From a virus (lineage: Duplodnaviria; Heunggongvirae; Uroviricota; Caudoviricetes), in IMG/VR virus record IMGVR_UViG_2690315831_000002: a DNA stretch of 37,164 nt; one strand, 5' to 3'. A program made the position numbers and the translations under genes. Below the pieces are notes generated by a model. It was not told where the DNA came from. It did no database searches and saw nothing but the letters and a program-made list of their open reading frames with translations. Each line of letters opens with the position of its first letter. Position 1 is the stretch's first letter. Of this stretch, positions 5,382 to 33,656 are shown one piece after another.

Positions 5382-6989
5382 TTAATTTATCTTTTCAACA
5401 TTTCCATGAATCAACAAGTCGTAGGCAAGAAATAGTTTCCTATACTGGGTTTTTAAATTGTCAACGTCGCATGCCTTGAATTGAACAAACGCTTCTTTTT
5501 TAACATAATCTTCAATCTCCTCTTTGGGGATATTTTTTATGTTCTTAATGACTATAGACAATTCTTTGTACTTTTTGAACGTTGCATCCTTTATATCTTT
5601 GATGTTGGTGTAAATTTTATTTGCATTGATTTTATCTAAGGTGATTTTATTGAGCAAGTCGTCTAGTTTTCCGTGGCGTTCAATGCGTTGATTTAGTTTT
5701 AACACATATTTAGCTGGCAAACTTAACTCTTTCAAATTACATGAGGTTATAGTTTTTGAAAATGGAAGTTGTAATGAGTTTACTGAACCTAATATGAAAT
5801 CTATGGCTAATTTATTAGATATTTCATTTTTATTAAATAAGTAGTCTTCAAGATAATTTATTTCTTTAACTTGTGTGAATACATACTTTTTATCGCCTAG
5901 AGCAACAACTAAATTTTTTCCTTGTTTAACACTTTCTTCAAGTCTGTCTAAGTCAGAAGGTGAAACCAATAGAGTATCTAAGTGCCCTTTTTCACCCTCA
6001 TTAATGATAAGTGTTTTAATGGCTCTTTGATACCTTAAAACATCATAAGGTGAGAGCCCTTCATCAACAGCACTGATCTCATCATAGATCTGTTTATAGT
6101 TATCTGTTTTAACAGATGTATATGTAATTTGTAGCTGTTGATCGGTAATCTGTTTTGGTACTACTTCCTGTTCATTCTCTTTATATTCAATCAAAATTAT
6201 TCTTTCAGCTGATTTTCGACCATCTTCTCTAGGTAGTTGTGAGGAAAAATCAGAAAGAAGTTTCTTTACATTCCTGTCAGTTAAAGAATATCCAAGAAAA
6301 ACTATTGGATTTTTAATCATGTTAGATAGTATCTTGGCACTAATGAGTATAGATTTGTTGTCATATTTTTCGTAATCATCTTTATTTATGATTATTGAGT
6401 GTGGATCCTTTATATCACCATGTATTTTGTATAACTCACTCCAGCCAATAGTATCTTCGAAAAAACCATTATTTCCAATATAGAGTTTTGGAATTACATT
6501 TTGCTCTTGAAGTAAATTTTCTATGAAAGCATCATAATTTGTAGTGATGATTATCTTGGCCTTTTTTATTAATGTTTTAAATGATGCTAATTCATCAAGA
6601 TTTACATCCTTTCTGATTGTGTTATTAGAAAATCTTTGGCATATGGCGTATTTAAATGGTGAAATATCTTCACTAAAAACCCTCTTGGCATCTAGTCCAT
6701 TTAATTTTAATTTGCCAGTCCTAAACAATAGATTGTAATCATTTTCAATTTTACTTGCTGCCTCTGTATAAATCTTATGATCGATATCATTATCACTGTT
6801 ATTTTTATGTGATTCTTTTATTGTTAAAAGATAACTATAGAAATCATTTGTGGGATTTGTTATTTTCCAATACTCGTTTAATAGCTCTTCCCACGTTGGG
6901 TAGTTCTCTAAATATCTTTTTGAAATGCCTGAGCCAATAAAGACTATTGGGTAATTTTTGAATTCAAAATTTTTTTTTGACATATCCAT
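5382..6989 (-). CDS. SIR2-family (SIR2_2-like) protein with an uncharacterised ~260-aa C-terminal domain; candidate NAD+-dependent defence effector
   Basis: 535 aa in a low-GC island. The ordered SIR2_2 motifs are VFIGSGIS (aa 16-23), TTNYD (149-153), KIHGD (188-192) and FLGYSLTD (231-238). It lies between OL and cI on the cI strand, the lambda rexAB slot. Confidence 0.75.
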   Translation of the reverse strand: MDMSKKNFEFKNYPIVFIGSGISKRYLENYPTWEELLNEYWKITNPTNDFYSYLLTIKESHKNNSDNDIDHKIYTEAASKIENDYNLLFRTGKLKLNGLDAKRVFSEDISPFKYAICQRFSNNTIRKDVNLDELASFKTLIKKAKIIITTNYDAFIENLLQEQNVIPKLYIGNNGFFEDTIGWSELYKIHGDIKDPHSIIINKDDYEKYDNKSILISAKILSNMIKNPIVFLGYSLTDRNVKKLLSDFSSQLPREDGRKSAERIILIEYKENEQEVVPKQITDQQLQITYTSVKTDNYKQIYDEISAVDEGLSPYDVLRYQRAIKTLIINEGEKGHLDTLLVSPSDLDRLEESVKQGKNLVVALGDKKYVFTQVKEINYLEDYLFNKNEISNKLAIDFILGSVNSLQLPFSKTITSCNLKELSLPAKYVLKLNQRIERHGKLDDLLNKITLDKINANKIYTNIKDIKDATFKKYKELSIVIKNIKNIPKEEIEDYVKKEAFVQFKACDVDNLKTQYRKLFLAYDLLIHGNVEKIN

Positions 6990-10613: not shown

Positions 10614-11633
10614 ATGTGTTACAGTAATGTTACAGATCGTGATCTTATGGGGCAAATTGCTACTAAACTAAATGACTATCGAAACCCTCCTCAAGGTGGC
10701 ATGAGCATTGATCATGTTAATCGATGGATTAATCAATTTGAGTTAACTGATAGGCGATTTGTCTTAGAGGAAACGGACCGATTAATGGGGATTGGATACT
10801 TTTCTGAGAACGACTATCGCAGGGTTATTAGTAGTATCGCCACTGATGAGCAAAATGAAAGTTTCTTTCAAACTGCAGCGTTTCTCGATATTCAGAACCA
10901 AGGTACCAGTCAATCTGAGTTTTTGGATTTACTTCGAGATGATTGTGTAGAAGAATTCAACGTTGTGACCAGACTTTCACAACGTCAAAGAGTTAGTTCA
11001 TTCCGTGAATTTATTTACGTTGACGATGTTTTATTCTCCGGAGCTAAGGCAATCAATGATTTAATTTGGTTTATTGAGCACTTTAAACTCCAAAATATTA
11101 CAATATTGGTGTACTTTTTAGGTGGGCACACATATTCAACATGGAAGATAAAAGACCAACTTGAACGAAGATTTGCGGGCAGAAATATTTCAGTTGGCGT
11201 TGGTGGAGGTGAGTTTGTATTTGTTGAAAATAAACTCCGAAATAGTTCGAATTCGGAGGTTTTATGGCCAAAAGCGCAAAGTGTATCAATACCTGAATGG
11301 GCTGACGGTCAAATACATTATTTAGGAACATATCGAAACGGTTACGTCGCGAATAAAATTTTTCCTGATGAGCAGAGACGTGATCGTTTTGAAACTATTC
11401 TGACAAAAGTTGGGTTTGATATCCTTGGTCATAGTCAAAATCCCTCTGCTGTCATAAAGCCCTTAGGCTTTTCAACTTTCAATGGTGTTGGGTTTGGCGG
11501 AACTATCTTTACTTTCAGAAACTGCCCAAATAATACCCCTCTCGCGTACTGGTGGGGAACTTATCTTCGAACAGGAAATAGAGCTCTGGATTGCTGGTAT
11601 CCACTTATGAAGCGTAATGTGTATAATCGGTGA
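10614..11633 (+). CDS. Type I phosphoribosyltransferase-like (PRTase-fold) protein, function unknown
   Basis: 339 aa, low GC. The call rests on one motif: REFIYVDDVLFSGAKAINDL (aa 131-150), which resembles the PRPP-binding loop (hydrophobic run-DD-x-x-x-(S/T)G). The first ~130 and last ~190 aa are unassigned. Confidence 0.45.
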   Translation: MCYSNVTDRDLMGQIATKLNDYRNPPQGGMSIDHVNRWINQFELTDRRFVLEETDRLMGIGYFSENDYRRVISSIATDEQNESFFQTAAFLDIQNQGTSQSEFLDLLRDDCVEEFNVVTRLSQRQRVSSFREFIYVDDVLFSGAKAINDLIWFIEHFKLQNITILVYFLGGHTYSTWKIKDQLERRFAGRNISVGVGGGEFVFVENKLRNSSNSEVLWPKAQSVSIPEWADGQIHYLGTYRNGYVANKIFPDEQRRDRFETILTKVGFDILGHSQNPSAVIKPLGFSTFNGVGFGGTIFTFRNCPNNTPLAYWWGTYLRTGNRALDCWYPLMKRNVYNR

Positions 11634-12247
11634 TCATGAGCTATAGACTATACCTGTTTCACAACACAGTTTCTTTCAGGAAAACCACCGAGAAATGGGG
11701 TGGTCTTTCCAACATGGCCAAAGGATATCCGCTCTTCGTTAATGGTATACCCATTCAATCGAGTGAAATTCTTTACCAAGCATGCCGATATCCAGACTAT
11801 CCAGATATCCAAAGGGTTATTATTACCCAAGCCAACCCTTACGAAGCTAAACAAACCGCCAGAACCTTCGAGGCCAAAACCCGTACTGGTTGGGAAAAAA
11901 ATCGAGTTTCGGTAATGAAATGGTGTGTCTGCGTTAAGCTTTGCCAGAACTGGGAATCGTTCTTCGCGCTATTGGATAGCACAGGAGATCATGACATTGT
12001 TGAGCACTCAGAGAAGGACCAATTTTGGGGGGCTAGTAAGGACTCCGAAGGTAACTTTTATGGCATGAACGTGTTAGGTCGTATCCTTATGGATGCGAGA
12101 GATATTGCAAGAAAGAAGGGGCCTGCAGGGTTTGCTACGATACCGCCGCTACCCTTGGATAGGTTTCTTCTGCTCGGGGAGCAAATACGTGATGTCACTT
12201 TCTCTCCACCACCGATGGATTCAGGGCAAAGCTTATCGCTTTTTTAA
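11630..12247 (+). CDS. NADAR (DUF1768, YbiA-like) domain protein
   Basis: It aligns by eye to E. coli YbiA along the whole domain: LSNMA..P..VNG....SSEILYQACRY versus FSNFA..PI.VDG.WPTSEHYFQAQKF, and IVEHSEKDQFWGA...G.NVLGRILMDAR versus LVEHTENDAYWGD...GKNRLGYLLMELR. The start is GTG 11630 (overlapping the upstream stop) or ATG 11636. Confidence 0.8.
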   Translation: MIMSYRLYLFHNTVSFRKTTEKWGGLSNMAKGYPLFVNGIPIQSSEILYQACRYPDYPDIQRVIITQANPYEAKQTARTFEAKTRTGWEKNRVSVMKWCVCVKLCQNWESFFALLDSTGDHDIVEHSEKDQFWGASKDSEGNFYGMNVLGRILMDARDIARKKGPAGFATIPPLPLDRFLLLGEQIRDVTFSPPPMDSGQSLSLF

Positions 12248-14471: not shown

Positions 14472-14608
14472 TGTTTGAGTCTTATATGGCAGAACGTATT
14501 CGCCACCGCTGGATACGCCTGCGCTTATATCGTTTCCCCGGTTCTGTTTTGACCGATTACCGGATACTGAAGAATTACGCCAAAACACTGAAAGGAGCTG
14601 CCGCATGA
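14468..14608 (+). CDS. ylcG: YlcG small protein
   Basis: This 46-aa ORF is absent from the track. [46 protein letters not shown] resembles DLP12 YlcG. It overlaps the rusA stop and the Q start. Confidence 0.7.
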
Positions 14609-15294
14609 ATACCCAATATTTACAGTATGTCCGCGAGCAACTCATTGTGGCTACTGCTGATTTGAGCGGAGCAACGAAAGGCCAGCTTGAAGCCTGGCTG
14701 GAGCATGCACAATTTGATACTGGTACATATAAACGAAAGAAGCTGCGCATTCTGGATGAGGTAACGGGCAAGATGATTACGCTGGATAATCCGCCGATTT
14801 CCGGTAAGCAGTCGTACGCAAAAGGTTCATCCATTGCACTGGTCAGCCAGGTTGAGTTCTCAACATCTTCATGGCGCCGCGCGGTTCTGTCTCTCGAAGA
14901 ACATCAGAAAGCGTGGTTGCTGTGGAGTTACAGTGAAAACATCAGCTTTGAATACCAGGTGGCGATCACCCAGTGGGCGTGGTCTGAATTCAGGGGGTAT
15001 CTCGGCGCGAAGAGGGTGGCAGGCAAGACCATGGAGCGCCTGAAGAAGCTGATATGGTTGGCAGCGCAGGATGTGAAGAGCGAGCTGGCTGGGCGTGAGA
15101 CTTATGAATACCGGGAACTGGCATCACTGGTGGGAGTGACATCAAAAAACTGGTCTGAGACATTCACTGAACGCTGGGTTGCAATGAAGCACATTTTTCT
15201 ACAGCTTGATAGCGAAGCTTTATTGCTTGTAACGAGAACACGTTCAAAACAAAAGACCACATTTTCACAGCAAAGTATTGCAAAACTGGATTAA
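14605..15294 (+). CDS. Putative late-gene antiterminator (Q-like)
   Basis: 229 aa in the Q position, after rusA/ylcG and before the lysis genes. My impression of similarity to Qin/phi80-type Q proteins is from memory only. Confidence 0.6.
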   Translation: MNTQYLQYVREQLIVATADLSGATKGQLEAWLEHAQFDTGTYKRKKLRILDEVTGKMITLDNPPISGKQSYAKGSSIALVSQVEFSTSSWRRAVLSLEEHQKAWLLWSYSENISFEYQVAITQWAWSEFRGYLGAKRVAGKTMERLKKLIWLAAQDVKSELAGRETYEYRELASLVGVTSKNWSETFTERWVAMKHIFLQLDSEALLLVTRTRSKQKTTFSQQSIAKLD

Positions 15295-15367
15295 AAAGCA
15301 TATATTTCATGTAAATCTGATATTCTGCCAATGTTGCATGTGCAACTGTTCGTAGATGTAGTAAGGG

Positions 15368-15396
15368 TTGACTATCCAATTTCTAGGATATAGATT
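15368..15396 (+). promoter_or_regulatory. Candidate late promoter PR'
   Basis: TTGACT (15368-15373), a 17-nt spacer, then TAGATT (15391-15396), 74 bp downstream of the Q stop. Lambda PR' also has TTGACT as its -35. Confidence 0.4.
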
Positions 15397-15515
15397 TTTC
15401 TGCAATAAAGGTTTTGGGAATGAAGGGGCGGCTCCCAAAAGATAACCGCCAAGTTGGTAACTTCGACTCGATAATTGGTCTGGGACTCCAACCGTGTCGG
15501 CTGAGAGGTCGACGT

Positions 15516-16319
15516 CTATTTCTTTTTGGGAAGTGGATACTTTAAGCTAACATTTTGAGTTTCTATATCTCGTGGCCCTCGAGTTTTATCATAAAAATAC
15601 CAGATATTAAATTTTCTCTCAGTGTGCCATGTATCATATTGCAAGTGATCCCAGCCTAAATATGAAGCAACATAGTTTGATACTCTTATTTTGGCTTCAG
15701 ATGAAGCTTTTCCTTGATATGCGCACATAACCGCACCTAAGAAAAAATCGGCTAGCTGAATGTTTTCAGATGCTTTAGAGTCTTTTGTCACTACACTGCT
15801 GATTATCCCTTTACGACCAAATTTTCTATTCAATATGTTATTGGCAATAACATTTAGTTCTTCATCAGCCTTTTTATAACGAGATGCGATAGGATCAACT
15901 TCAATCCTGAAGTAACTGTCTCTTTCAGGGTGTGCAGAAATTACAGAGCTAATTTTTGTGGTAATGAGATTTGTGAAGTGCTTTCTCCTTGCCAGGTCAT
16001 AATCTCCATTATGAAATGCCTTATTTACTATTGATTTTTCAACCACGATACAATGAAAAGCTAGCCAAGGAACTCTAAAGAATAAGTCGATCAGCTCAAG
16101 ATAAAATTCAGAGTATCTTTTTGAATGGGCTTTTTGCCATTTTATTTCTTCAAAAAAAACATGTTTTCTGCGTAGTTCTCTGATTAGTTGACAGAAATCC
16201 CCACGGCGTTGGTACTTCATCCACAGACTGCCAAAGCCGTAGAAACGTTGTCCATCAATGCCAGATTCATCGCAAGCAATATGCCAAATTAACTTACCAA
16301 TGTTATCTTTTTCTGTCAT
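15516..16319 (-). CDS. DUF3800-like protein
   Basis: 267 aa in a low-GC island. It has the N-terminal CDESG motif (IACDESGIDG) and the C-terminal QLADFFLGAV motif typical of DUF3800. It is antisense to the late operon. Confidence 0.6.
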   Translation of the reverse strand: MTEKDNIGKLIWHIACDESGIDGQRFYGFGSLWMKYQRRGDFCQLIRELRRKHVFFEEIKWQKAHSKRYSEFYLELIDLFFRVPWLAFHCIVVEKSIVNKAFHNGDYDLARRKHFTNLITTKISSVISAHPERDSYFRIEVDPIASRYKKADEELNVIANNILNRKFGRKGIISSVVTKDSKASENIQLADFFLGAVMCAYQGKASSEAKIRVSNYVASYLGWDHLQYDTWHTERKFNIWYFYDKTRGPRDIETQNVSLKYPLPKKK

Positions 16320-16547
16320 CTGCTGGTAATACTCTTAGTCCTTAAAGCATAGTATTTAACCATACATGTAACTCATTGATAAAGATCGTTTTATGCAAGT
16401 TGCATATATTGGTTTTTGAAGGCCATTCGCTTGGTTATAAGATTTTTTAGTTATTTTGAATTGACTGTTTATAACAATATTTCCCATGTAAGTTTTTAAT
16501 CATTAGCGTCCCGGCCTTTCGTCGGCGGCGAAACATTGGCTATTCAT

Positions 16548-16853
16548 ATGCACGAAAAAGAGAGCCTTGCCGGAGCGTTCTGGCTCGTTTTGCTGATCAT
16601 CGCAGGTTGGGGCGGTCTGGTCCGCTACCTGATAGATGTGAAGCAGAGTAAAGCAACGTGGAGTTGGATAAATGCTCTGGCTCAGATAGTGGTATCGGGA
16701 TTCACCGGTGTTATTGGTGGCCTGATCAGTATCGAAAGTGGATTCAGTATTTACATGATTCTCGCGACAGCGGGGATTAGTGGTGCGATGGGTTCGGTTG
16801 CACTGACGTACTTCTGGGAACGACTGACAGGGGTGAAAAATGCAAAATCTTAA
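16548..16853 (+). CDS. Class I holin (three predicted TM helices)
   Basis: It lies directly upstream of endolysin R and overlaps it. The three hydrophobic segments are AFWLVLLIIAGWGGLV, ALAQIVVSGFTGVIGGLISI and IYMILATAGISGAMGSVALTYFW. ATG 16548 is preferred over TTG 16536. Confidence 0.75.
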   Translation: MHEKESLAGAFWLVLLIIAGWGGLVRYLIDVKQSKATWSWINALAQIVVSGFTGVIGGLISIESGFSIYMILATAGISGAMGSVALTYFWERLTGVKNAKS

Positions 16854-17316
16854 TCCTCAGCGTAAAGCTTTCCTCGATATGTTGGCGTGGTCAGAGGGAA
16901 CGGATAACGGGCGACAACCGACACGTAACCACGGTTATGATGTTATTGTTGGTGGTGAACTGTTTACTGATTACTCCGATCATCCTCGCAAACTTGTCAC
17001 GCTAAACCCGAAACTTAAATCAACAGCTGCCGGACGTTATCAGCTTCTTTCCCGTTGGTGGGATGCTTACCGTAAACAGCTTGGTTTGAAAGACTTCTCC
17101 CCCAAAAGCCAGGACGCTGTGGCATTGCAGCAGATTAAAGAGCGTGGCGCTTTACCGATGATTGATCGCGGTGATATTCGTCAGGCAATTGACCGTTGCA
17201 GCAATATCTGGGCTTCACTGCCGGGTGCTGGTTATGGTCAGTTCGAGCATAAGGCTGACAGCCTGATTGCAAAATTCAAAGAAGCAGGCGGAACGGTCAG
17301 AGAGATTGAGGTATGA
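16840..17316 (+). CDS. R: Endolysin R (lambda lytic transglycosylase)
   Basis: 158 aa, near-identical to lambda R ([46 protein letters not shown]...). Confidence 0.95.
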
Positions 17317-17774
17317 GCAGAGTAACCGCGATTATCTCCGCTCTGGTTATCTGCATCATCGTCTGCCTGTCATGGGCTGTTAATCATTACCACGATAACG
17401 CCATTACCTACAAAGCCCAGCGCGACAAAAATGCCAGAGAACTGAAGCTGGCGAACTCGACAATTACTGACATGCAGATGCGTCAGCGTGATGTTGCTGC
17501 GCTCGATGCAAAATACACGAAGGAGTTAGCTGATGCGAAAGCTGAAAATGATGCTCTGCGTGATGATGTTGCCGCTGGTCGTCGTCGGTTGCACATCAAA
17601 GCAGTCTGTCAGTCAGTGCGTGAAGCCACCACCGCCTCCGGCGTGGATAATGCAGCCTCCCCCCGACTGGCAGACACCGCTGAACGGGATTATTTCACCC
17701 TCAGAGAGAGGCTGATTACTATGCAAAAACAACTGGAAGGAACCCAGAAGTATATTAATGAGCAGTGCCGATAG
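17313..17774 (+). CDS. Rz: Spanin inner-membrane subunit Rz
   Basis: 153 aa, lambda Rz-like, with an N-terminal TM segment and a coiled coil. Confidence 0.9.
17533..17715 (+). CDS. Rz1: Spanin outer-membrane lipoprotein Rz1, embedded in Rz in the +1 frame
   Basis: 60 aa with lipobox LVVVGC and a proline-rich region ([16 protein letters not shown]), as in lambda Rz1. Confidence 0.9.
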
Positions 17775-24313: not shown

Positions 24314-24322
24314 GGGATGTTT

Positions 24323-24655
24323 ATGACGAGCAAAGAAACCTTTACCCATTACCAGCCGCTGGGCAACAGTGACCCGGCACATACGGCAACCGCGCCCGGC
24401 GGATTGAGTGCGAAAGCGCCTGCAATGACCCCGCTGATGCTGGACACCTCCACCCGTAAGCTGGTTGCGTGGGATGGCACCACCGACGGTACTGCCGTTG
24501 GCATTCTGGCGGTTGATGCTGACCAGACCAGCACCACGCTGACGTTCTACAAGTCCGGCACGTTCCGTTATGAGGATGTGCTCTGGCCGGAGGCTGCCAG
24601 CGACGAGACGAAAAAACGGACCGCGTTTGCCGGAACGGCAATCAGCATCGTTTAA
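24323..24655 (+). CDS. D: Head decoration protein D
   Basis: 110 aa from ATG 24323 ([40 protein letters not shown]...), lambda gpD. Confidence 0.95.
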
Positions 24656-24676
24656 CCTTACCCTTCATCACTAAAG

Positions 24677-24697
24677 GCCGCCTGTGCGGCTTTTTTT
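24677..24697 (+). terminator. D-E intergenic stem-loop (GCCGC-ctgt-GCGGC followed by T7)
   Basis: The hairpin and T-run are read directly from the sequence. The same structure sits between D and E in lambda. Confidence 0.5.
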
Positions 24698-24710
24698 ACG
24701 GGATTTTTTT

Positions 24711-25403
24711 ATGTCGATGTACACAACCGCCCAGCTGCTGGCGGCAAATGAGCAGAAATTTAAGTTTGATCCGCTGTTTCTGCGTCTCTTTTTCCGTGAG
24801 AGCTATCCCTTCACCACGGAGAAAGTCTATCTCTCACAAATTCCGGGACTGGTATCCGGTGCGCCTGTATGGGCGTCTGAACATCAGTCCACGCTGAGCG
24901 CGGGGTATCTTCATGCCCGGACGAACGTTCCCAGCAGTGATGATCTGAACGGGATTAACGTGAAATACCGTTATGAGTTTACGGACACACTGGGGATGGT
25001 GACGTCGTTCAGCTATGCAGGAGACAAGAATCGCCAGCTTACCCGTTACAGCGATACCCGCTGGCATGAAGATTCCGTGCGTAACCGCTGGTTCAGCGTG
25101 ATGGCGGGGCCGTCTGTACGCGTGAATGAATGGTTCAGCGCGTATGCGATGGCAGGCGTGGCTTACAGCCGTGTGTCGACTTTTTCCGGGGATTATCTCC
25201 GCGTAACTGACAACAAGGGAAAAACGCACGACGTGCTGACCGGAAGTGATGACGCTCGCCACAGTAACACCTCTCTGGCGTGGGGAGCTGGCGTGCAGTT
25301 TAACCCGACCGAATCCGTGGCCGTTGATGTCGCTTATGAAGGCTCCGGCAGTGGCAACTGGCGCACTGACGGGTTCATCGTGGGTGTCGGTTATAAGTTC
25401 TGA
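24711..25403 (+). pseudogene. In-frame chimera: major capsid E codons 1-48 fused to a Lom/Ail-family outer-membrane protein that lacks most of its signal peptide
   Basis: MSMYTTAQLLAANEQKFKFDPLFLRLFFRESYPFTTEKVYLSQIPGLV is the lambda E N-terminus. From 24855 the ORF reads SGAPVWASEHQSTLSAGYLH...GINVKYRYEFTD...WRTDGFIVGVGYKF, a Lom-family beta-barrel. The lambda sequence ...CTGGTAAACATGGCG is replaced by ...CTGGTATCCGGTGCG. Confidence 0.85.
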
Positions 25404-25430
25404 TTAGCCAGGTAACACAGTGTTATGACA

Positions 25431-25456
25431 GCCCGCCGGTTCAGGCGGGCTTTTTT
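25431..25456 (+). terminator. Rho-independent terminator after lom
   Basis: GCCCGCC-ggttca-GGCGGGC is followed by T6. Confidence 0.8.
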
Positions 25457-25467
25457 GTGGGGTGAAT

Positions 25468-27012
25468 ATGGCAGTAAAGATTTCAGGTGTACTGAAAGAC
25501 GGTGCAGGTAAACCGGTACAGAACTGCACAATCCAGCTGAAAGCAAAACGTAACAGCACCACGGTGGTGGTGAACACGCTGGCCTCAGAAAATCCGGATG
25601 AAGCCGGGCGTTACAGCATGGACGTTGAGTACGGTCAGTACAGCGTTATTCTGTTGGTGGAAGGATTCCCGCCGTCACATGCCGGGACCATCACCGTGTA
25701 TGAAGATTCTCAACCCGGTACGCTGAATGATTTTCTCGGTGCCATGACGGAGGATGATGCCCGTCCGGAGGCACTGCGCCGTTTTGAACTGATGGTGGAA
25801 GAGGTGGCGCGTAACGCGTCCGCAGTGGCACAGAACACGGCAGCCGCGAAGAAGTCAGCCAGCGATGCCGGCACATCAGCCCGTGAGGCGGCAACCCATG
25901 CGACTGATGCTGCAGGCTCAGCACGCGCAGCCAGCACGTCAGCCGGACAGGCCGCTTCGTCGGCTCAGTCAGCGTCTTCCAGCGCAGGAACGGCATCAAC
26001 AAAGGCCACTGAAGCATCAAAAAGTGCTGCCGCTGCAGAGTCCTCAAAAAGCGCGGCGGCCACCAGTGCCGGTGCGGCGAAAACGTCAGAAACGAATGCT
26101 GCAGTGTCACAAAAATCTGCAGCTACTTCTGCATCCACCGCGACCACGAAAGCGTCAGAAGCTGCCACCTCAGCCCGGGATGCGGCGGCCTCAAAAGAGG
26201 TAGCGAAATCATCAGAAACGAACGCATCATCAAGTGCCAGTAGTGCAGCTTCCTCGGCAACGGCGGCAGGAAATTCCGCGAAGGCCGCAAAAACGTCTGA
26301 GACGAATGCGGATAACAGCGCACAGGCGGCAGCAGACTCACAAACTGCATCGGCAAACTCCGCGACAGCAGCCAAAAAATCAGAAACCAACGCGAAAAAT
26401 AGCGAGGCAGCAGCAAAGAGCAGCGAAACAAACGCTAAAGCCAGCGAAACTAATGCTAAATCCAGTGAAACAAACGCGGCGAAATCTGCGGCGGACGCAC
26501 TTAATTATCGCAACCAGGCCCAGGGTATTGTTGGTACTAACATCGGTTTGGGATCATCACCGCGTGATTGCTCTGACATCTCAGGAAATCCATCAGGTTA
26601 TATTGGCTTTATGCGCATCATGGCTGATGCAACAGGTTTCCCGTCTATTGCATCCGGTGAAAGCAGTCTTACGGGGTTTATTAGTCAGGTAGATGGAACT
26701 CCAGCGTATACAGGTGTATTTCAGGGATGGACTACTCGCTCGCTTTATACCTATCGCTGGAGTCCGACAACAGGCCCGCAATGGACACGCCACGCTCGCA
26801 AAAATGAAGTGGACCGTCTTGACCAATGGAATAGCGAAACATGGTTATATAACCATGATAAATCCATGCGCCTGGGTTTAACCGGATCAACATGGGGGTG
26901 TTACAGCGACACACAAAAAAATGGATACCACTTGATGTTTCTCATGGTGGCACTGGCGCAAATAGCCTTGATGACGCCAAAACTAATTTGCAAATCCCTG
27001 AGGGTGGGTTAA
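25468..27012 (+). CDS. stf: Side tail fibre Stf, N-terminal portion (frame interrupted near 26915-26921)
   Basis: MAVKISGVLKDG.GKPVQNCTIQLKA.RNSTTVVVNT...DEAGRYSMDVEYGQYSVIL matches the lambda Stf N-terminus. An Ala/Ser-rich rod follows. Confidence 0.85.
   Translation: MAVKISGVLKDGAGKPVQNCTIQLKAKRNSTTVVVNTLASENPDEAGRYSMDVEYGQYSVILLVEGFPPSHAGTITVYEDSQPGTLNDFLGAMTEDDARPEALRRFELMVEEVARNASAVAQNTAAAKKSASDAGTSAREAATHATDAAGSARAASTSAGQAASSAQSASSSAGTASTKATEASKSAAAAESSKSAAATSAGAAKTSETNAAVSQKSAATSASTATTKASEAATSARDAAASKEVAKSSETNASSSASSAASSATAAGNSAKAAKTSETNADNSAQAAADSQTASANSATAAKKSETNAKNSEAAAKSSETNAKASETNAKSSETNAAKSAADALNYRNQAQGIVGTNIGLGSSPRDCSDISGNPSGYIGFMRIMADATGFPSIASGESSLTGFISQVDGTPAYTGVFQGWTTRSLYTYRWSPTTGPQWTRHARKNEVDRLDQWNSETWLYNHDKSMRLGLTGSTWGCYSDTQKNGYHLMFLMVALAQIALMTPKLICKSLRVG
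26083..26480 (+). repeat. Coding repeats in the Stf rod: SETNA motif about 7 times, with tandem 7-aa units K(A/S)SETNA at 26374-26480
   Basis: Protein segments AKTSETNA, AKSSETNA, AKTSETNA and KKSETNAKNSEAAAKSSETNAKASETNAKSSETNAAK. The corresponding DNA repeats are imperfect. Confidence 0.6.
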
Positions 27013-29069
27013 CAAAAGCGATGACCATTAATGCACCTGGTGGTGCAGTGGATGGCAAATACTACCCTGTCATAATAGACACATCCGCAATGGAAGGTTA
27101 CGGCAACCTGACATGTCCTATTGATATAAAAACAGCAGGACGTTCATCATCAGACCCGCTTAATAGCAATACATTTAGTGGATATTTTCGATGCGGTGGC
27201 TGGAGTGACTCCAGAGATATAGCTTGCGGCTCATTTGTTGCCTATGACAAAAATGAGCTAGGGATACTTTGCCTTAAAGTATCGCAGAAAGACTATCCGC
27301 AATATGTAGCGTTCTATATCCATAAAGCCGCTTTCCCGATATTATTGCAAACAGGCTATAAAGCACGAGTCATTGTACCAACAGAAGATTATATAATCGG
27401 CACAAGCGGCGTTAAATATAAATTTGGTGTATCAACGTCAACAGAGGGTAACGCCGAGAACGCTGTTAAAAATGCTCTCGATTTCACTGGCGGTGAAAGC
27501 GGGTTTTATAGCAACCTGCCGTTCCGGCAAGGATACGCCTATAATGTCGCATTAACAAACGGGATGGTTCTTGATAAGAATTTTGTCTTAACCGCTCCAG
27601 TATTTATGAACAATGGCGAGGTTAAAGCAACAAAATCTTTCACCGCGTACGGTACGGATGTTTCAAACAGAACATTTGTTTCTCAAGGATTACAATCCGA
27701 AGGAGGTCCGGTTGTCGATCAAACTGAACTAAGGGCTGGTAACGGGCAAGGTGAAATTGTTGTCAGGGACATAAATAATTCAGGGAACAGCAAGTTCTTT
27801 AATTTTAACCTTGATGGTACCTTCAGTTCTTATCAGGGATTGGTTGTTCACACAGGGCAAAACTGGAGCACTCAACATACAGAGAATGTAAATAAGTTTA
27901 AGCCAATAGCAGGGAGCGCAGGCGGTCCTGACGGAACAATGGTTGTTGGCGGGTTCCATGCTCAATTTAGCGGTAATTACGTCACACAATTCGCCGGTCG
28001 CAACTCCAAATTTTGGGCAAGAAGCTTTGAGGCTGGGGTTGATAAGGGATGGAAACGACTATTAACAGTAGACGATCTCAATTCATCTACCGATCTTGCT
28101 GTCAGGTCATTAACCACATCTAACCCGGTAAAATCTGGCGGAGGGCGAATTGATGTCCTTGGAAGCACGTCAGACTATAGCAAAATGGATTGCTTTGTAC
28201 GTGGGTTTGATAGCACCGGTAATTCTCTCGCGTGGGCGTTGGGTTCATCAGTCGGCGTAAGTAAGATGCTGTCGCTAAAAAATTTCTTTAGCGGAGCTGA
28301 GATACTGCTAAATGGTAATGACGGCGCGGTTCAACTCAAAACAGGTGCTGTTAACGGGGCTACAGCGCAGACGCTCACTATCAACAAGAATGAGGTTAAC
28401 TCAACCGTTGATTTAACCCTTACAAAGCAATCAGGGACTGGTAATCGTTTTGTTTTACAGAACTCAGGTAATGCAGAACTACCGTTTTCTGTCAGGGTGT
28501 GGGGTTCCAGTACTCGACAAAACGTTTTTGAGGTTGGAACGTCTGCTGCGTATCTGTTTTATGCGCAAAAAACGTCAGCAGGCCAGTTGTTTGATGTAAA
28601 TGGCGCTATTAATTGCACAACGCTGAATCAGTCATCAGACCGCGACCTTAAAGACGATATTCTCGTTATCAGCGACGCGACGAAAGCAATCCGTAAAATG
28701 AACGGATACACCTACACGCTCAAGGAAAACGGGATGCCTTATGCTGGCGTTATTGCACAGGAAGTAATGGAGGCGATACCAGAAGCTGTGGGATCGTTTA
28801 CTCATTATGGTGAAGAGTTGCAAGGTCCGACCGTTGACGGCAACGAGCTACGCGAAGAAACTCGCTATCTTAATGTTGACTACTCCGCCGTGACGGGTTT
28901 ACTTGTTCAGGTCGCCCGTGAAACAGATGATCGCGTTACCGCGCTGGAAGAGGAAAACACAACGCTACGTCAAAATCTGGCAACAGCAGGCACCCGGATC
29001 AGCACTCTGGAAAATCAGGTAAGCGAACTGGTTGCACTTGTCCGGCAGTTAACAGGAAGCGAACATTGA
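26892..29069 (+). CDS. Side tail fibre, C-terminal portion in an alternative frame; ends in an intramolecular-chaperone (peptidase S74-like) domain
   Basis: WIPLDVSHGGTGANSLDDAKTNLQI is a typical fibre linker motif. The C-terminus (SSDRDLKDDI...MNGYTYTLKENG...AGVIAQEV...NVDYSAVTGLLVQ plus a coiled coil) resembles endosialidase-type autocleaving chaperone domains. Confidence 0.75.
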   Translation: MGVLQRHTKKWIPLDVSHGGTGANSLDDAKTNLQIPEGGLTKAMTINAPGGAVDGKYYPVIIDTSAMEGYGNLTCPIDIKTAGRSSSDPLNSNTFSGYFRCGGWSDSRDIACGSFVAYDKNELGILCLKVSQKDYPQYVAFYIHKAAFPILLQTGYKARVIVPTEDYIIGTSGVKYKFGVSTSTEGNAENAVKNALDFTGGESGFYSNLPFRQGYAYNVALTNGMVLDKNFVLTAPVFMNNGEVKATKSFTAYGTDVSNRTFVSQGLQSEGGPVVDQTELRAGNGQGEIVVRDINNSGNSKFFNFNLDGTFSSYQGLVVHTGQNWSTQHTENVNKFKPIAGSAGGPDGTMVVGGFHAQFSGNYVTQFAGRNSKFWARSFEAGVDKGWKRLLTVDDLNSSTDLAVRSLTTSNPVKSGGGRIDVLGSTSDYSKMDCFVRGFDSTGNSLAWALGSSVGVSKMLSLKNFFSGAEILLNGNDGAVQLKTGAVNGATAQTLTINKNEVNSTVDLTLTKQSGTGNRFVLQNSGNAELPFSVRVWGSSTRQNVFEVGTSAAYLFYAQKTSAGQLFDVNGAINCTTLNQSSDRDLKDDILVISDATKAIRKMNGYTYTLKENGMPYAGVIAQEVMEAIPEAVGSFTHYGEELQGPTVDGNELREETRYLNVDYSAVTGLLVQVARETDDRVTALEEENTTLRQNLATAGTRISTLENQVSELVALVRQLTGSEH

Positions 29070-29240
29070 TATCCTTCAAGCCCTGAAGGAGGCTGTTCCT
29101 GGTACGTTCAGACTGTTGCTGAGCTGGAGATCGCAACGGAGGAAGAGAAAGCGTTTCTGGCCGCATGGAAAACATATCGGGTATTGCTGAACCGTGTTGA
29201 TACAGTAAACCCCGTCTGGCCTCCACCTTCGAAGCGATAG
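29070..29240 (+). pseudogene. tfa: Tail-fibre assembly protein (Tfa) 3' remnant
   Basis: The frame from 29112 reads [31 protein letters not shown]...WPPP*, matching the conserved Tfa C-terminus ([26 protein letters not shown]). No N-terminal two-thirds is present. Confidence 0.7.
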
Positions 29241-29544
29241 CCCAGCAACTCCTAAATAGCTGCGCATAATACCGCTACACCTGCCGTTTTACTGACATTT
29301 GGAATATTGCGTGAGGGCAACATATCGAGGGGCAGATACAGCTCGGTCAAATAGAAAAACAGCCCCACTATTTACCATGCAATAGCTGGTCAAAAGGAGA
29401 GCACTATTCCGCTCCGCGTAGTATTTTGTGTTTATAGTGATAACTTAGGTAATGCTTAGTCACTAAGATACTTTGCTATTGGAGAGCGATTTATAATGTG
29501 GGCGCAACAGATTTTTACTATTGCGCCACTTGCTCTTGTGAGTA

Positions 29545-30633
29545 CTATTCGCTATAAGTTAATGTTGGTTTTGAAAGTCTTTTGGATATTGTTTTTCCGA
29601 TATTAATGAATGGAGTTTCAATATATTTATAAATAAAGAATGATAAGAACAAGCTAAGAGCAATAATGAATGAAAACTTAGAGAACCCAGGTTTTTCATA
29701 AAGCGGAATGAAATCCTTAAAATTAATTAAAAATAGCATTACTATCGCATGGGATAAATACAGAGAGTAAGAGATATCACCTAGCTTACTGAGTATTTTA
29801 TTTTCCCTTAATCCGAAGTTAACTTCATAAAGTAAAACTCCCGTAATTATGGAGGCTGCCCACAATCCGAAGTTTAAAGGGCCATGACCAAATCTGAATT
29901 GATAAAAATATGAGCAAACACCAAATGAAACCAAAAGGAATGATATCGCCTTTGCGTTTTTTATATATTTAAATTTTCTGTGTATTATATACAGAAACAT
30001 CCCATAAACGAATTCTAACAGCATGGGTGATGACATTAAGTTTAGAAAGCCAATATGCCAATGACCTGTATCACCAATCGTAAACTTACTTGATAGAGAA
30101 AGGCTGTTGGAAAATTTCAACTGTATGAGAAGTAGCGGGACTATCAATGCAATAACTGATATTAATAATCTGTTTTTATGACTCAGCGATATTGCAAGCA
30201 TAAAAATGAAATAAAAATAGACTTCAAAGGTTAATGTCCATGCTGGATAAAGCACGTTGTATCCGAAGAATGGCGCTTCTGAATAATAGTCCAGGTGAAG
30301 CAGAAACAATGAACGCAATAATTCACTTTCGGTGAAGACTGGGTTCAATAAAAAGAATAAGATTGTGCAAATGAAAAATACAGGGTAAATCCTGAAAAAA
30401 CGCCTGGTCATAAAGTTAATAGGGGAATTTGTTTCTTTTTTTTGACTCGATAACATTATTATAAATCCACTTATAATAAAAAACAGATCAACCCCAAAAC
30501 CACCACTAATAAACAATAAATCACCTAGATCTTTTTGTGCGTAAACTTCATTTAGGTATTGTTTATTGTGATATGCAACAACGAGTAATGCTGCTACACC
30601 TCGCAAATAGTGAATTGATTTTACCTTCTTCAT
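29545..30633 (-). CDS. Integral-membrane acyltransferase (Acyl_transf_3 family; OafA/Oac-like, probable O-antigen/surface glycan acetylase)
   Basis: 362 aa with ~10 hydrophobic segments. The N-terminal signature IHYLRGVAALLVVAYH and the DLFFIISGF motif are present. It is very low in GC. Confidence 0.8.
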   Translation of the reverse strand: MKKVKSIHYLRGVAALLVVAYHNKQYLNEVYAQKDLGDLLFISGGFGVDLFFIISGFIIMLSSQKKETNSPINFMTRRFFRIYPVFFICTILFFLLNPVFTESELLRSLFLLHLDYYSEAPFFGYNVLYPAWTLTFEVYFYFIFMLAISLSHKNRLLISVIALIVPLLLIQLKFSNSLSLSSKFTIGDTGHWHIGFLNLMSSPMLLEFVYGMFLYIIHRKFKYIKNAKAISFLLVSFGVCSYFYQFRFGHGPLNFGLWAASIITGVLLYEVNFGLRENKILSKLGDISYSLYLSHAIVMLFLINFKDFIPLYEKPGFSKFSFIIALSLFLSFFIYKYIETPFINIGKTISKRLSKPTLTYSE

Positions 30634-30843
30634 TTTTATATAATCACTGTTCCAATTTTTTTTATTTTACAAACAATTCTATCTAGCTCATTAGTACACA
30701 AAGTCAGATTGGTAGCAATAAAAAAACAAGATATGTGATGACATGGCGCGGGGCTCAGAACCACTCGTGTATTTTCGCCACTGGCTATGACTGGCTGCAC
30801 CTGCAAGATCTGCCATTTGTGTGCCAGTATACCCAAGCTCTGA

Positions 30844-31350
30844 CTTTATGTTTACCAGATCCTCTGGAGTGCCGGGGAGTATAATCGTTGATTAATCGAA
30901 TCTGCAACTATTTCAGAACGACCTAGGTTAAAGTGCGCTCTGCAGTCTCTTATATAAGGTGATACTTTAATTGTCTGGAAACTGGACAGGTTAGGAAGGA
31001 GCAGGAAACATCTTATTATACTTACCGAGTAGCTGCGGGTAAGGGGGGGGGGGTTCCGTAGCCTGACAGGTAACATTGACACGTCAACATCGATGGTTTT
31101 TTTTATTTTTCCATGTGATGGAGCCCTGGTTGAAATGAAGCGTGAACTGATTGATGACTGAACAAAAGTTGGACTGGAAGATGCTCGCGCACAGGGAGGA
31201 ATTGGTGGACGTCGTCCTAAACTTACATCAGAACAATGGGCGCAGGCCGGGCGATTAATTGCATCAAAAGTCCCGCGTCAGAAGGTGGCGATCATCTATG
31301 ATATTGGTGTATCGACTTTGTATAAGAGGTTTCCAGCCAGGATTATATAA
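30844..31350 (+). pseudogene. pin: Pin/Hin/Gin-family serine invertase pseudogene
   Basis: A single frame reads GDTLIVWKLDRLGRS...FRSLT.NIDTS...GALVEMKRELI...GGIGGRRPKLTSEQWAQAGRLIA...STLYKRFP. It carries in-frame stops at 30889 and at three later positions. About 20 N-terminal codons, including the catalytic Ser, are absent. A G11 run lies at 31043-31053. Confidence 0.8.
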
Positions 31351-31673
31351 AACTGCAGACACGCCGTATGCAAGACGTGCTGCGGTTGGCTGATGCACTT
31401 TCGAGAGTGTATGTATTGAATAATTTCCAACCGTCATTAATTTTATTTATTTTTTGCATGAGAGGATTTGAACCTCCGAGCCTCGACACCTTATGACAAC
31501 GCGATATTCCCTTGATGACCGCTATGCGCCAAAATAACCAATTGATAAATAAGTTGATTTTAATTAGTTGGAAGCAAGTCAGGTCAAATTCAGCATGCCG
31601 CTCTCTGTATCGGGTAGTTAAATTTTTCTATAACTGATAGTAATATGTTAAAACTCACACAGATAAATTATCA

Positions 31674-33656
31674 TTGCTCAACAAGTATAATGGAGTTCCC
31701 GTGGATACAGCAGAACATGATGGCAAATTTGCTTGGGCTAGTTTTTATGAGGCTTTTGCCAACGCGTTACTGACTTGGCGAAATCGTAGAGATGAATTAG
31801 TCAAAGGTATTCATCTAATTGCCTCAGGTGTGGAAGGAATGTCCCATCTGCAGGACAAATCTATTATGGGAGAGATCTTTCCCTTAAAAGACATTTGTCC
31901 GTTTACTACTATGGGCTTGTTCAATCGTAACTTGACCGACAGCAATCGCAAAATTATTGCTGCCAAGCTAGCGAATTTGTTGGGCGTGAACGAACCGATT
32001 CCTGACTCCTTTGCCGGAATCCCGCTGTTGAATAACCAAAAATCTTGGTTCTTTGGTTATGAAAAGTCACGCGACCCTAATGACATTGAATGCTTGTGGG
32101 AAATGTTCTCGCAGGCAATGACCTTTGCGGATAACCAGAATACTAACTCTGCAGACTTCACTGCCGCATATGACATCGCTTCTACAGTAATGAATGTCGG
32201 TTGGAATCTCACCATGGGGTTGTACTGGACCCGTCCTTGGTTCTACCCTACTTTAGATAGCCAGTCGCAGTATTACATTCAGACAGTGTTAAACATTAAG
32301 ATCATTAAAAACGGGGCAAAAGGTCGCTGTAGTGGACAAAGTTACCTGAGTCTTATGCGGGCGCTGAACGAGGTCTTTACCCAACCAAACTATCCGGTTC
32401 ATTCTTTCCCAGAACTTTCTTTATCAGCGTGGAATACAGATCTTAGCCAGTCTAAAGATGAGGTGGCAAATAGAACGTGGAAAGCCTCTTTACTGAATAA
32501 AATTAAGGCGTTATGCCTGAAAAAAAATGGCCCTTATTTCACTGCTTCGGAGTTGGAAGAAAACTACTTGGACGTATTCAAGGTAGAGCATCCTGAGAGC
32601 AAAACAGTTACAAGCTCAATCTACTTTTATCTACAGAAACTATGCAATGATGATGAGTTAAAGTCCCTTGAGTCCGGAAATTATGAATACCTGAATTTTG
32701 AGAAAAACGAATCCCAGACGATAACTGAGGAAACTGTCGAAGAGAGTGCGCCGTTGCCAAAACTCACTCACGTTCCTTATGACATCAGTCATCTGGTGCA
32801 GGATGGCTGTTTCTTGGAAGAGGCTAAGATCCAACTCACACTTCAGCGCCTGATCGACAAGAAAAACCTGATATTACAAGGACCACCCGGAACTGGAAAA
32901 ACCTGGTTAGCGCGACGTTTGGCGTACTGCTTGATGGGAGAAAAAGCACCTGAGCGTATTAGCGCGGTGCAATTTCACCCGAACCTCTCTTACGAAGACT
33001 TTATTCGCGGCTGGCGTCCAGGTAAAGAAGGGCAATTGACGCTAATTGATGGACCTTTTGTAAATGCAATCAAAACTGCAGTCAATAATCCTACCTCGAA
33101 ATATGTGGTGATAATTGAAGAGATTAATCGTGGCAATCCGGCGCAAATCTTCGGTGAAACACTCACGTTGATGGAAGCAGATAAACGCACGCCGACTGAG
33201 GCATTATCTCTTTCCTATCCTAAAAATGATGATGAAAAAATATACATTCCTGAGAATCTATATATCATCGGTACGATGAATATTGCAGACCGCTCACTCG
33301 CACTACTTGACCTAGCGCTGCGCCGTCGTTTCGCGTTTATCGATCTAAAGCCAGCTTTTAATGACGCGTGGAGAAACTGGGTAAATTATAATTACGCAAT
33401 TGATTTTGACATGTTAGCATTCATCAAATCTCGACTGACGGTACTTAACGATATGCTGGCAAAAGATGTTACCTTAGGACCACAGTTTTGTATCGGTCAC
33501 AGCTATGTCACCCCAGCTATCGGCCAAAAAATCAACGATGCCCAGGCTTGGTATGAACAAGTCGTTGATACAGAGATCTGCCCTTTGCTCGCCGAATATT
33601 GGTTCGATGCTCCAAATAAAGTCGATGAAGCCAGAAAAGTGTTATTAGCAAAATGA
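31674..33656 (+). CDS. McrB-family AAA+ GTPase subunit of a type IV (modification-dependent) restriction system, with a ~390-aa unassigned N-terminal domain
   Basis: Motifs are Walker A LQGPPGTGKTW, the McrB signature VVIIEEINRGNPAQIFGE (compare EcoKMcrB DEINRANLSKVFGE) and IIGTMNIADRSLALLDLALRRRFAF. The start is TTG 31674 or, more likely, GTG 31701, which is preceded by GGAG at a 5-nt spacing. Confidence 0.85.
   Translation: MLNKYNGVPVDTAEHDGKFAWASFYEAFANALLTWRNRRDELVKGIHLIASGVEGMSHLQDKSIMGEIFPLKDICPFTTMGLFNRNLTDSNRKIIAAKLANLLGVNEPIPDSFAGIPLLNNQKSWFFGYEKSRDPNDIECLWEMFSQAMTFADNQNTNSADFTAAYDIASTVMNVGWNLTMGLYWTRPWFYPTLDSQSQYYIQTVLNIKIIKNGAKGRCSGQSYLSLMRALNEVFTQPNYPVHSFPELSLSAWNTDLSQSKDEVANRTWKASLLNKIKALCLKKNGPYFTASELEENYLDVFKVEHPESKTVTSSIYFYLQKLCNDDELKSLESGNYEYLNFEKNESQTITEETVEESAPLPKLTHVPYDISHLVQDGCFLEEAKIQLTLQRLIDKKNLILQGPPGTGKTWLARRLAYCLMGEKAPERISAVQFHPNLSYEDFIRGWRPGKEGQLTLIDGPFVNAIKTAVNNPTSKYVVIIEEINRGNPAQIFGETLTLMEADKRTPTEALSLSYPKNDDEKIYIPENLYIIGTMNIADRSLALLDLALRRRFAFIDLKPAFNDAWRNWVNYNYAIDFDMLAFIKSRLTVLNDMLAKDVTLGPQFCIGHSYVTPAIGQKINDAQAWYEQVVDTEICPLLAEYWFDAPNKVDEARKVLLAK

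Follow-up and report, generated by a model that had tools for sequence, protein, structure and literature searches.

The stretch analysed here, referred to as the window, comprises 37,164 nucleotides of a virus of the Caudoviricetes (IMG/VR record IMGVR_UViG_2690315831_000002) and carries, on the minus strand between the late antiterminator gene Q and the lysis genes, a gene of the DUF3800 family. This gene is one half of a low-GC inserted cassette; the other half, convergent with it, specifies a small structured RNA whose homolog is the core of lambda's 6S late-leader RNA. Both the small RNA and the movement of RNA and gene as one unit had been missed by the original prediction, which was made from the letters of the window. 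The cassette and its parts are as follows.

15340..16503, no strand assigned: low-GC inserted cassette of 1.16 kb (small-RNA gene and DUF3800 gene), delimited by the loss and resumption of homology with phage PhiR47_2
15516..16319, minus strand: DUF3800 gene, ATG start, 267 codons/aa, with a predicted RNase H-like (type 2 RNase H / PIWI-like) nuclease as product
15403..15527, plus strand: structured small RNA of ~125 nt, paralog of the lambda 6S late-leader core, with predicted ends
15368..15396, plus strand: cassette promoter TTGACT-17-TAGATT, which would drive the small RNA
16354..16396, minus strand: DUF3800 promoter, with -35 TTATCA at 16382-16377, a 17-nt spacer and an extended -10 TGgTTAAAT (hexamer 16359-16354)
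16383-16396, minus strand: AAAACGATCTT block with a Dam GATC site, just upstream of the DUF3800 -35 and strongly conserved in 46 related loci

The 267-aa product contains CDESG at residues 16-20 and IQLADFFLGA at residues 187-196, and it belongs to DUF3800 by the Pfam hidden Markov model PF12686 (E=1.2e-10, 42.7 bits against a cut-off of 21, residues 16-197). Furthermore, phrog_3732 matches over the whole reading frame (E=5e-137) and the PADLOC model PDC-M04A (PDLC04353) over residues 13-243 (E=3.4e-34); a search of NCBIfam with the same protein gave no match. The low-GC DUF3800 reading frame recognised in the original prediction by its CDESG and QLADFFLG motifs is thus borne out, and it lies in a stretch with a GC content of 0.34-0.39. 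The gene is already annotated, the RefSeq label of the identical gene being 'DUF3800 domain-containing protein', and the family, its fold and its candidate-defence status are already known. Complete E. coli genomes carry the identical 1.24-kb region in 86 of 5426 cases. The homologs recovered, over 500 in number, are single-domain proteins of ~265 aa with 53-98% identity; Enterobacterales, Vibrio, Shewanella, Alteromonas and Aeromonas have them, as do Myxococcota and Acidobacteriota, and PF12686 is precomputed on all of those listed. Among 30 diverse homologs, D17, E18, D142, D152, E153, D180, Q188 and D191 are invariant. The protein therefore has both the DE motif (D17-E18, in CDESG) and the QxxD motif (Q188-x-x-D191, in IQLADF) described for the family, together with an RNase H fold, by Mestre 2020 (PMC7736814) and independently by Altae-Tran 2023. 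The published contexts of DUF3800 are retron type VII, Cas12a2/Cas12a3 loci (as TPR-DUF3800), a Cas13-associated kinase operon (Csx32) and eleven structured RNA motifs unrelated to one another.

The AlphaFold model of the protein is confident (predicted local distance difference test, pLDDT, 90.4; predicted template modelling score, pTM, 0.89) and its predicted fold is of the type-2 RNase H / PIWI-like kind, with the RuvC domains of Cas9/IscB and endonuclease V named beside it. A catalytic fold, which the original prediction had proposed to look for, is accordingly what the model suggests, with the invariant acidic residues in place. In the model topology, D17/E18 end β1, D142 follows β4, and Q188/D191 lie in the helix after β5, so that the invariant carboxylates would occupy the positions expected for an RNase H-type active site. 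The candidate tetrad D17/E18/D142/D191 is placed by topology only, and the fold matches type 2 RNase H with no match to the Pfam RNase HII model. A search of the PDB by sequence found no relative, and a search of BFVD with the model matched only DUF3800, RNase H and RuvC-like proteins, at low template modelling scores. Taking into account the type-2 RNase H / PIWI-like fold and the complete set of conserved acidic residues, the most likely activity of the protein is that of a Mg2+-dependent nuclease with RNA/DNA hybrids, or else other duplex or structured nucleic acid, as its substrate.

The limits of the cassette are readily apparent from PhiR47_2, an empty-site phage with a 92.6% identical Q, the same holin and no DUF3800 gene: homology stops at ~15340 and resumes at ~16503, and consequently the insert takes in the promoter at 15368-15396. 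GC content is 0.34-0.39 across 15150-16500 and ~0.5 in the flanks. The cassette promoter resembles lambda PR' (TTGACT-17-TAAATT), and the consensus TTGACn-N(15-17)-(CA)TGTAGATT occurs at the same position in cassettes behind five Q families. Taken as a bare consensus match, the site TTGACT-17-TAGATT does not exceed chance (2 sites found, 4.7 expected); the promoter is considered real because its position is kept in dozens of related cassettes and its transcript is homologous to the lambda PR' leader. Neither the lambda nor the 82 pause element is found in this region. The promoter is PR'-like by descent but is not the one served by the resident Q. On the other strand, a sigma-70 promoter of the DUF3800 gene itself (TTATCA-17-TGnTTAAAT) is conserved in an alignment of 46 unique upstream regions, and the flanks of the loci share a conserved block of 40 nt ahead of the gene. 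The AAAACGATCTT block could be an UP element or an operator, and the conserved promoter is consistent with expression in the lysogen. The transcription start site of the DUF3800 gene and the ends of the small RNA are predictions from sequence.

The genes around the cassette are those of a late region, with the following features of relevance to transcription.

14605..15294, plus strand: late antiterminator gene Q, phage-82 type (PF06323, E=1.4e-95)
15278..15340, plus strand: 82-type late promoter and qut site, with -35 TTGCAA at 15278-15283 and -10 TATATT at 15301-15306
15313, plus strand: probable +1 of 82 pR', since GCC at 15327-15329 is set as +15..+17
15318-15326, plus strand: 82 pR' pause element, extended -10-like TGaTATTCT, followed by GCC at 15327-15329 (+15..+17)
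15337, plus strand: 82 pR' pause at +25, along with an AT-rich stretch
16548..17774, plus strand: lysis genes for a LydA-type holin (16536/16548-16853), lysozyme and Rz, which late transcription would reach through the cassette

The gene had been assigned to the moron slot between Q and lysis, on the opposite strand, and this placement holds, with Q upstream and holin, lysozyme and Rz downstream; a Bor/Iss gene on the other strand follows the lysis genes. The promoter at 15368-15396, which the original prediction had taken as the start of Q-antiterminated late transcription, is present and PR'-like, but it is ruled out as the Q-responsive PR' of this phage and would instead drive the cassette RNA. 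The Q gene is of the 82 type (nucleotide identity of 90.6% to phage 82 Q, 92.6% to PhiR47_2 and 85% to 434), and its cognate pR' and pause lie upstream, where 15278-15337 fits the published description of 82 pR' pause architecture (PMC5001585). The promoter region 15278-15340 is kept together with Q in Q82-type phages, and homology ends at ~15340 for PhiR47_2 and at ~15323 for 434. Because Q is 82-type, the 82 pR' architecture is matched and homology ends just beyond, the Q-responsive promoter of this phage is that at 15278-15306. This case is a warning for annotation, in that a lambda-like PR' beside a Q gene need not be the promoter of that Q. In 16320-16535, between the DUF3800 gene and the holin, no promoter-like site was found on the plus strand; consequently, Q82-modified transcription must cross the cassette in antisense to the gene, in agreement with what had been predicted.

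The small RNA is organised in four helices and a pseudoknot, all on the plus strand.

15416-15419/15433-15436, plus strand: pseudoknot PK
15427-15431/15446-15450, plus strand: helix P1
15453-15457/15488-15492, plus strand: helix P2
15465-15468/15477-15480, plus strand: helix P3
15496-15502/15507-15513, plus strand: helix P4, with the GNRA loop GAGA at 15503-15506
15517-15527, plus strand: U-rich tail, overlapping the stop codon and the last (Lys) codons of the DUF3800 gene

Right after the DUF3800 stop codon, 105-125 nt are 74-94% identical in 12 Enterobacterales loci, whose proteins are 71-87% identical. An alignment of 13 loci analysed with RNAalifold gives P1-P4 and the pseudoknot, of 3-4 bp; 99.4% of the cells contain standard pairs, and five pairs have changed on both sides, compared with 0 in all six slid-partner controls of this set. 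In a larger set of 92 unique sequences, 96.5% of pairs are canonical (29-53% with shifted partners) and P3, P4 and the pseudoknot show several pair types. This set is uninformative for P1 and P2, which the retrieval pattern holds fixed. Several features make sense on the plus strand only, namely G·U pairs (invariant or as intermediates, e.g. UA/CG/UG at one P4 position), the GNRA tetraloop (GAGA or GUGA), the U-rich tail after P4 and the positionally conserved TTGACn...TAGATT promoter; the RNA is therefore encoded on the plus strand, convergent with DUF3800. The P4 hairpin and the U-run form a terminator-like site at its 3' end. Compensatory changes in the cassette lineage, copies in P2 contexts included, show the RNA to be under selection there. 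No Rfam family was found at the gathering threshold or at E<=10 in the window, the locus or the isolated element, and snoRNA matches at E 3-4.5 are attributed to chance. Rfam contains DUF3800 motifs, but its DUF3800-I to -XI covariance models gave no match at the gathering threshold or at E<=10; likewise, none of the curated DUF3800 RNA motifs was found near 11 distant homolog loci.

When a 20-nt core pattern served as the query, 93 metagenomic contigs and over 120 viral ones were recovered. In 132 of the 184 instances with room for the gene, the core is present without DUF3800. The genes flanking the core are lambdoid: lambda Q or another Q family upstream and the lambda S holin, tRNA genes or DUF3800 downstream. 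The covariance model R1, built from the cassette RNAs, matches lambda itself (NC_001416, 44612-44727; positions 813-928 of our locus L297) at 65.1 bits and E=2.1e-17. The matched stretch lies between PR' (TTGACT-17-TAAATT), which it follows directly, and tR', and this identifies the cassette RNA as a homolog of the lambda 6S RNA core. The covariance model was required for this result, as lambda was not among the GenBank phages that the element recovered by blastn at E<=1e-5. The first idea, that the downstream block is a partner RNA specific to DUF3800, was revised in view of the 132 gene-free instances and the match to 6S. The four-helix fold with its pseudoknot and compensatory changes is seen in the core at 15410-15527, in lambda 44612-44727 and in L083-L295, across different Q specificities and with no Rfam family. 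In phages lacking DUF3800, the Q-specific promoter and initial transcribed region run directly into the core (e.g. 114 nt after lambda Q); in a Q82-type phage of this kind the sequence reads '...TATATTTCGTGTAAATCTGATATTGTGCG...' and then the core, and in L281 the 82-type promoter sequence runs straight into the native leader core. At DUF3800 loci the native promoter comes first, followed by TTGACn-17-TAGATT, a short 5' segment, the core, and the P4 hairpin with its U-run; a native terminator is visible upstream of the cassette in several loci (e.g. L003, L006, L213). The lambda 6S RNA has been known since 1971, and the papers found give no function for it; it is bound by Hfq and processed in vivo from 194 to ~121 nt. 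Relative to Rfam 15 and the searchable literature (older print-only work on 6S lies outside it), three findings appear to be new: that the cassette has two parts, that its RNA is a paralog of the lambda 6S core, and that this core has a pseudoknotted fold supported by covariation across lambdoid phages. Conservation of the core across Q specificities, together with its copying into a mobile cassette, speaks for a function of the RNA itself, with helices that are precisely defined.

The unit of RNA and gene has a fixed geometry: in 62 of 62 paired instances, the DUF3800 gene is convergent and ends directly after P4. It is found behind lambda-type, 21-type, 82-type and DUF1133-type Q genes and behind a fifth, putative Q family (c16; no Pfam match), as well as after tRNA genes. 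At least 10 P2-type loci carry it between gpA and the portal gene, for example phage Chuche. This region is presumably the tin/old defence hotspot of P2, which Rousset is said to have described in 2022. No protein-coding neighbour of DUF3800 is conserved across 66 genomic loci. The cassette-type RNAs form one sequence clade, and 38 of the 43 unique ones are paired with DUF3800; seven clade members scored as unpaired comprise two with a broken or truncated DUF3800 gene and five with other cargo or none. Since the RNA unit occurs with other convergent genes or with none, it may mark a site of cargo exchange, as the evidence suggests. RNA and protein distances are correlated (Mantel rho 0.72, p=0.001). 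Marine homologs with 61-68% identity (Vibrio, Colwellia, Ferrimonas), and those of Psychromonas, have no such RNA, and model R1 found no copy at DUF3800 loci of Vibrio, Shewanella, Alteromonas and Myxococcota. The standalone marine homologs and the gene-free leaders indicate that neither RNA nor protein strictly needs the other.

Some individual loci merit separate mention. In L139, L251, L212, L228 and L242, the place of DUF3800 next to a cassette-type RNA with TTGACn-17-TAGATT is taken by another small convergent gene, or the RNA directly adjoins a P2-type portal gene. One viral contig, L106, contains two copies of the leader-core pattern (417-436 and 1988-2007, both on the minus strand), 1.57 kb apart, and this tandem may represent a native leader and a cassette copy. 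At ~95 nt after the DUF3800 stop, an attC-like CTAAC...GCGTTA was noted by eye in the Colwellia, Vibrio, Psychromonas and Ferrimonas loci L013, L014, L018, L019, L021, L022, L023 and L067. By inspection against the consensus of the Vibrio cholerae repeat, this marine downstream block looks like an integron attC, which suggests that marine DUF3800 genes are single-gene integron cassettes.

The interpretation favoured, with moderate confidence, is that the DUF3800 gene encodes an accessory and probably defensive nuclease expressed in the lysogen, its 3' end shielded, and possibly tuned, by the convergent unit of small RNA and terminator. The late promoter of the 82 type, with its pause and qut site, immediately precedes the cassette. 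The hairpin terminator of the cassette would, in the lysogen, stop transcription from both constitutive promoters, PR'82 and that of the cassette, at the 3' end of DUF3800. Antisense transcription would then be kept off the gene while its own promoter drives it; the small RNA, overlapping the 3' end of the DUF3800 mRNA, may in addition tune that mRNA. After induction, Q82-modified polymerase would pass the terminator and the whole gene in antisense on its way to holin, lysozyme and Rz. The role would be of the anti-phage kind, possibly a nucleolytic attack on invading or replicating nucleic acid. This idea is consistent with the PADLOC candidate match, with the P2-type loci and with the integron-cassette contexts. 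The context is also of a defence type, since SIR2 and phosphoribosyltransferase (PRTase) plus NADAR genes occur in the same prophage and DUF3800 is linked to retron VII, Cas12a2/a3 and Cas13 loci. Overall, the original interpretation of a lysogen-expressed, host-protective gene is partly supported, and the observation behind it is confirmed.

Several results weigh against this explanation. No activity, nuclease function, expression or phage-challenge phenotype of any DUF3800 protein was found in the literature to 2026, as the original prediction had also stated of its function. PDC-M04 is a candidate system only and nominally multi-gene: component A is present, the second component PDC-M04B had no match in the neighbours scanned (Q, holin, endolysin, Rz, RusA, YbcO and two short flanking ORFs), and no paper describing PDC-M04 was found. 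Likewise, integron-cassette defence screens in the literature make no mention of such a DUF3800 protein. The P4 hairpin is not the terminator in lambda itself, and the U-run begins 2-5 nt past the P4 stem, so that termination efficiency is uncertain. An insulator role does not account for the conservation of a complete structured RNA and its promoter, P2 contexts included, and the standalone marine homologs show that the protein needs no such RNA. The folding energy is no better than that of shuffled sequences (z +0.66 on the plus and -1.02 on the minus strand, neither significant); in view of this lack of thermodynamic support, the case for the RNA structure rests on covariation. Finally, no major capsid or tail genes are present between the head-decoration gene and the Lom-like and tail-fibre genes, and the prophage appears defective although it has kept Q, the lysis genes and several defence-type morons. 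This weakens the scenario, also part of the original prediction, in which the gene is silenced when the prophage turns lytic, and that scenario may have little relevance here.

The main rival is a partnership of RNA and protein: the small RNA would be the functional partner of DUF3800 in a two-component system, gating, guiding or neutralising the nuclease as an antitoxin-like or sensor RNA or as a late-leader mimic, with an infection-driven change in the RNA unleashing or directing the enzyme. We regard this as a serious but doubtful possibility. It fits the known associations of the family, as DUF3800 genes are known to associate with 11 or more structured RNAs that are unrelated to one another, lie in either orientation and in many cases end in a terminator (PMC5737381), and as DUF3800 in retron type VII is paired with an RNA-DNA hybrid product (PMC7736814). 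The frequent pairing of cassette-type RNAs with the gene, which is also kept in P2-type loci, where there is no operon for a late leader to head, points the same way, as do the compensatory changes in the cassette lineage, the co-divergence of RNA and protein, and a fold common to the RNA-guided nucleases Argonaute and Cas9/IscB RuvC; co-divergence, however, would also follow from tight physical linkage alone. The convergent 3' overlap recalls some type I toxin-antitoxin loci. Of the features of type I/III systems, an overlap of ~10 nt, together with antisense to any 3' untranslated region (UTR), is predicted; there is no repeat array, and complementarity of the RNA to the DUF3800 5' UTR gave no conserved signal (mean z 0.24). 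The variable 5' segment, of ~10 nt only, is too short for a conventional guide. Against the partnership stand the 61-68% identical Vibrio, Colwellia and Ferrimonas homologs, which are apparently single-gene integron cassettes lacking the RNA and would argue against DUF3800 toxicity, together with the five cassette-type RNAs that have other cargo or none; moreover, the core is kept in 132 lambdoid loci devoid of DUF3800, so that its conservation is independent of the protein. A broader form of the idea, in which DUF3800 enzymes in general are RNA-dependent nucleases, each subfamily gated or guided by an adjacent RNA and here by a captured 6S core, so that the system would specifically sense or target lambdoid phages by way of the non-coding element they conserve most, is considered unlikely. 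If true, it would account at once for the association of the family with Cas12a2/Cas13, its pairing in retron type VII and its eleven orphan RNA motifs, and would give the lambda 6S fold its first functional context.

Two further explanations are less likely than either the favoured reading or the partnership. DUF3800 might serve the phage itself, in late-leader/6S processing, removal of R-loops or RNA primers, or lysis timing, with no host protection. Its location at the head of the late operon beside a 6S-like RNA, its RNase H-type fold and the processing of lambda 6S from 194 to ~121 nt could be read in this way, and many phages encode RNase H-type enzymes, T4 RNase H among them. Nevertheless, the gene is absent from most lambdoid phages with the same leader (the 132 of 184 given above) and missing in near relatives of the Q82 type. 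It has a promoter to itself, an orientation antisense to the late operon and a moron-typical low GC, and P2 hotspots, integron cassettes and non-phage islands contain it too, no neighbour being conserved among them, all of which makes a phage-intrinsic role very improbable. Hardly more credible, and if anything slightly less so, is a selfish homing-type element, in which DUF3800 would cut the leader-core DNA of cassette-free lambdoid phages and the gene with its immune core would be copied by recombinational repair. The gene always adjoins a sequence highly conserved among cassette-free lambdoid phages, the cassette-type cores are a distinct sequence clade, the cassette has spread into phages with five Q types, and RNase H-fold enzymes include DNA endonucleases. 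Homing does not predict, however, that many recipients carry the cassette after the native terminator, in leaders devoid of any core, nor do P2 and integron contexts offer such a target; furthermore, the G·U pairs, the GNRA loop and the conserved promoter are RNA-specific constraints and not mere conservation of a target site.

A near-identical prophage is integrated at icd in E. coli A35. Window 24317-29069, compared with 27030-31776 of the A35 locus L002, holds portal, protease and head-decoration genes, followed by a Lom-like gene and a frameshifted tail-fibre gene. The Q gene is annotated as frameshifted in A35 (L002 17310-18000); the Q reading frame of the window (14605-15294) is intact, with 229 aa. 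A SIR2-family gene of 535 aa (5382-6989, minus strand) lies in the immunity region beside the repressor, with a PADLOC match to PDC-S25 (E=9e-235) and similarity to ThsA-like SIR2. A phosphoribosyltransferase-like gene (10614-11633, plus strand) and a NADAR-family gene (11630-12247, plus strand) overlap by 4 nt in the nin region; RefSeq labels the pair as anti-phage proteins in A35, and PADLOC gives weak matches to PRTase_III-A and PDC-M42C. Just past the prophage end, an McrBC-like pair (AAA ATPase and McrC by the A35 annotation) occupies 31674-34774 on the plus strand, preceded by an acyltransferase gene at 29545-30633 on the minus strand.

Compared with type 2 RNase H (RNase HII/H2A) and the PIWI domain of Argonaute, the predicted fold of the DUF3800 protein is alike, but sequence identity is only 6-12% and an extra conserved C-terminal region (~residues 200-267) is present. 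The family is widespread, with an RNase H fold and a place beside retrons, Cas12a2/a3, Cas13 and a dozen orphan structured RNAs. The cassette resembles the DUF3800 RNA motifs of Weinberg et al. 2017 (Rfam RF02968, RF02969 and others) in the protein family and in a terminator-ended RNA that adjoins the gene in a non-UTR arrangement; unlike them, its RNA matches no curated motif, is homologous to the lambda 6S core and is widespread in the absence of DUF3800 as well (taxa and structures of DUF3800-II to -XI were compared through Rfam only).

With the lambda 6S RNA itself, the cassette RNA shares the promoter form TTGACT-17-TA[A/G]ATT and the homologous core, and it is likewise predicted to be a short, constitutive, terminated RNA at the head of a late region. 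It differs in being a second copy, carried by an inserted cassette, whose 5' segment is much shorter, and in having no lambda pause element, no coupling to the resident 82-type Q, and a probable end at the P4 hairpin, whereas lambda 6S ends at tR'. It therefore belongs with the 6S / PR' leaders by homology and is not a Q-acted transcript of the resident phage. In the Stx phages, the functional analogue of lambda 6S, StxS, is a trans-acting small RNA. A fold conserved across Q specificities has thus been copied into a mobile cassette. At 1.16 kb this cassette is small, it occurs naturally in E. coli and it lends itself to cloning, so that both protein and RNA can be mutated. Finally, the cassette is similar to the cargo of prophage defence morons and hotspots, such as the stx slot between Q and S and the P2 tin/old region, in its position, low GC, own promoter, independent or opposite transcription and variable cargo, and it is distinguished from them in that a predicted RNase H-like gene brings along its own small-RNA gene and terminator.

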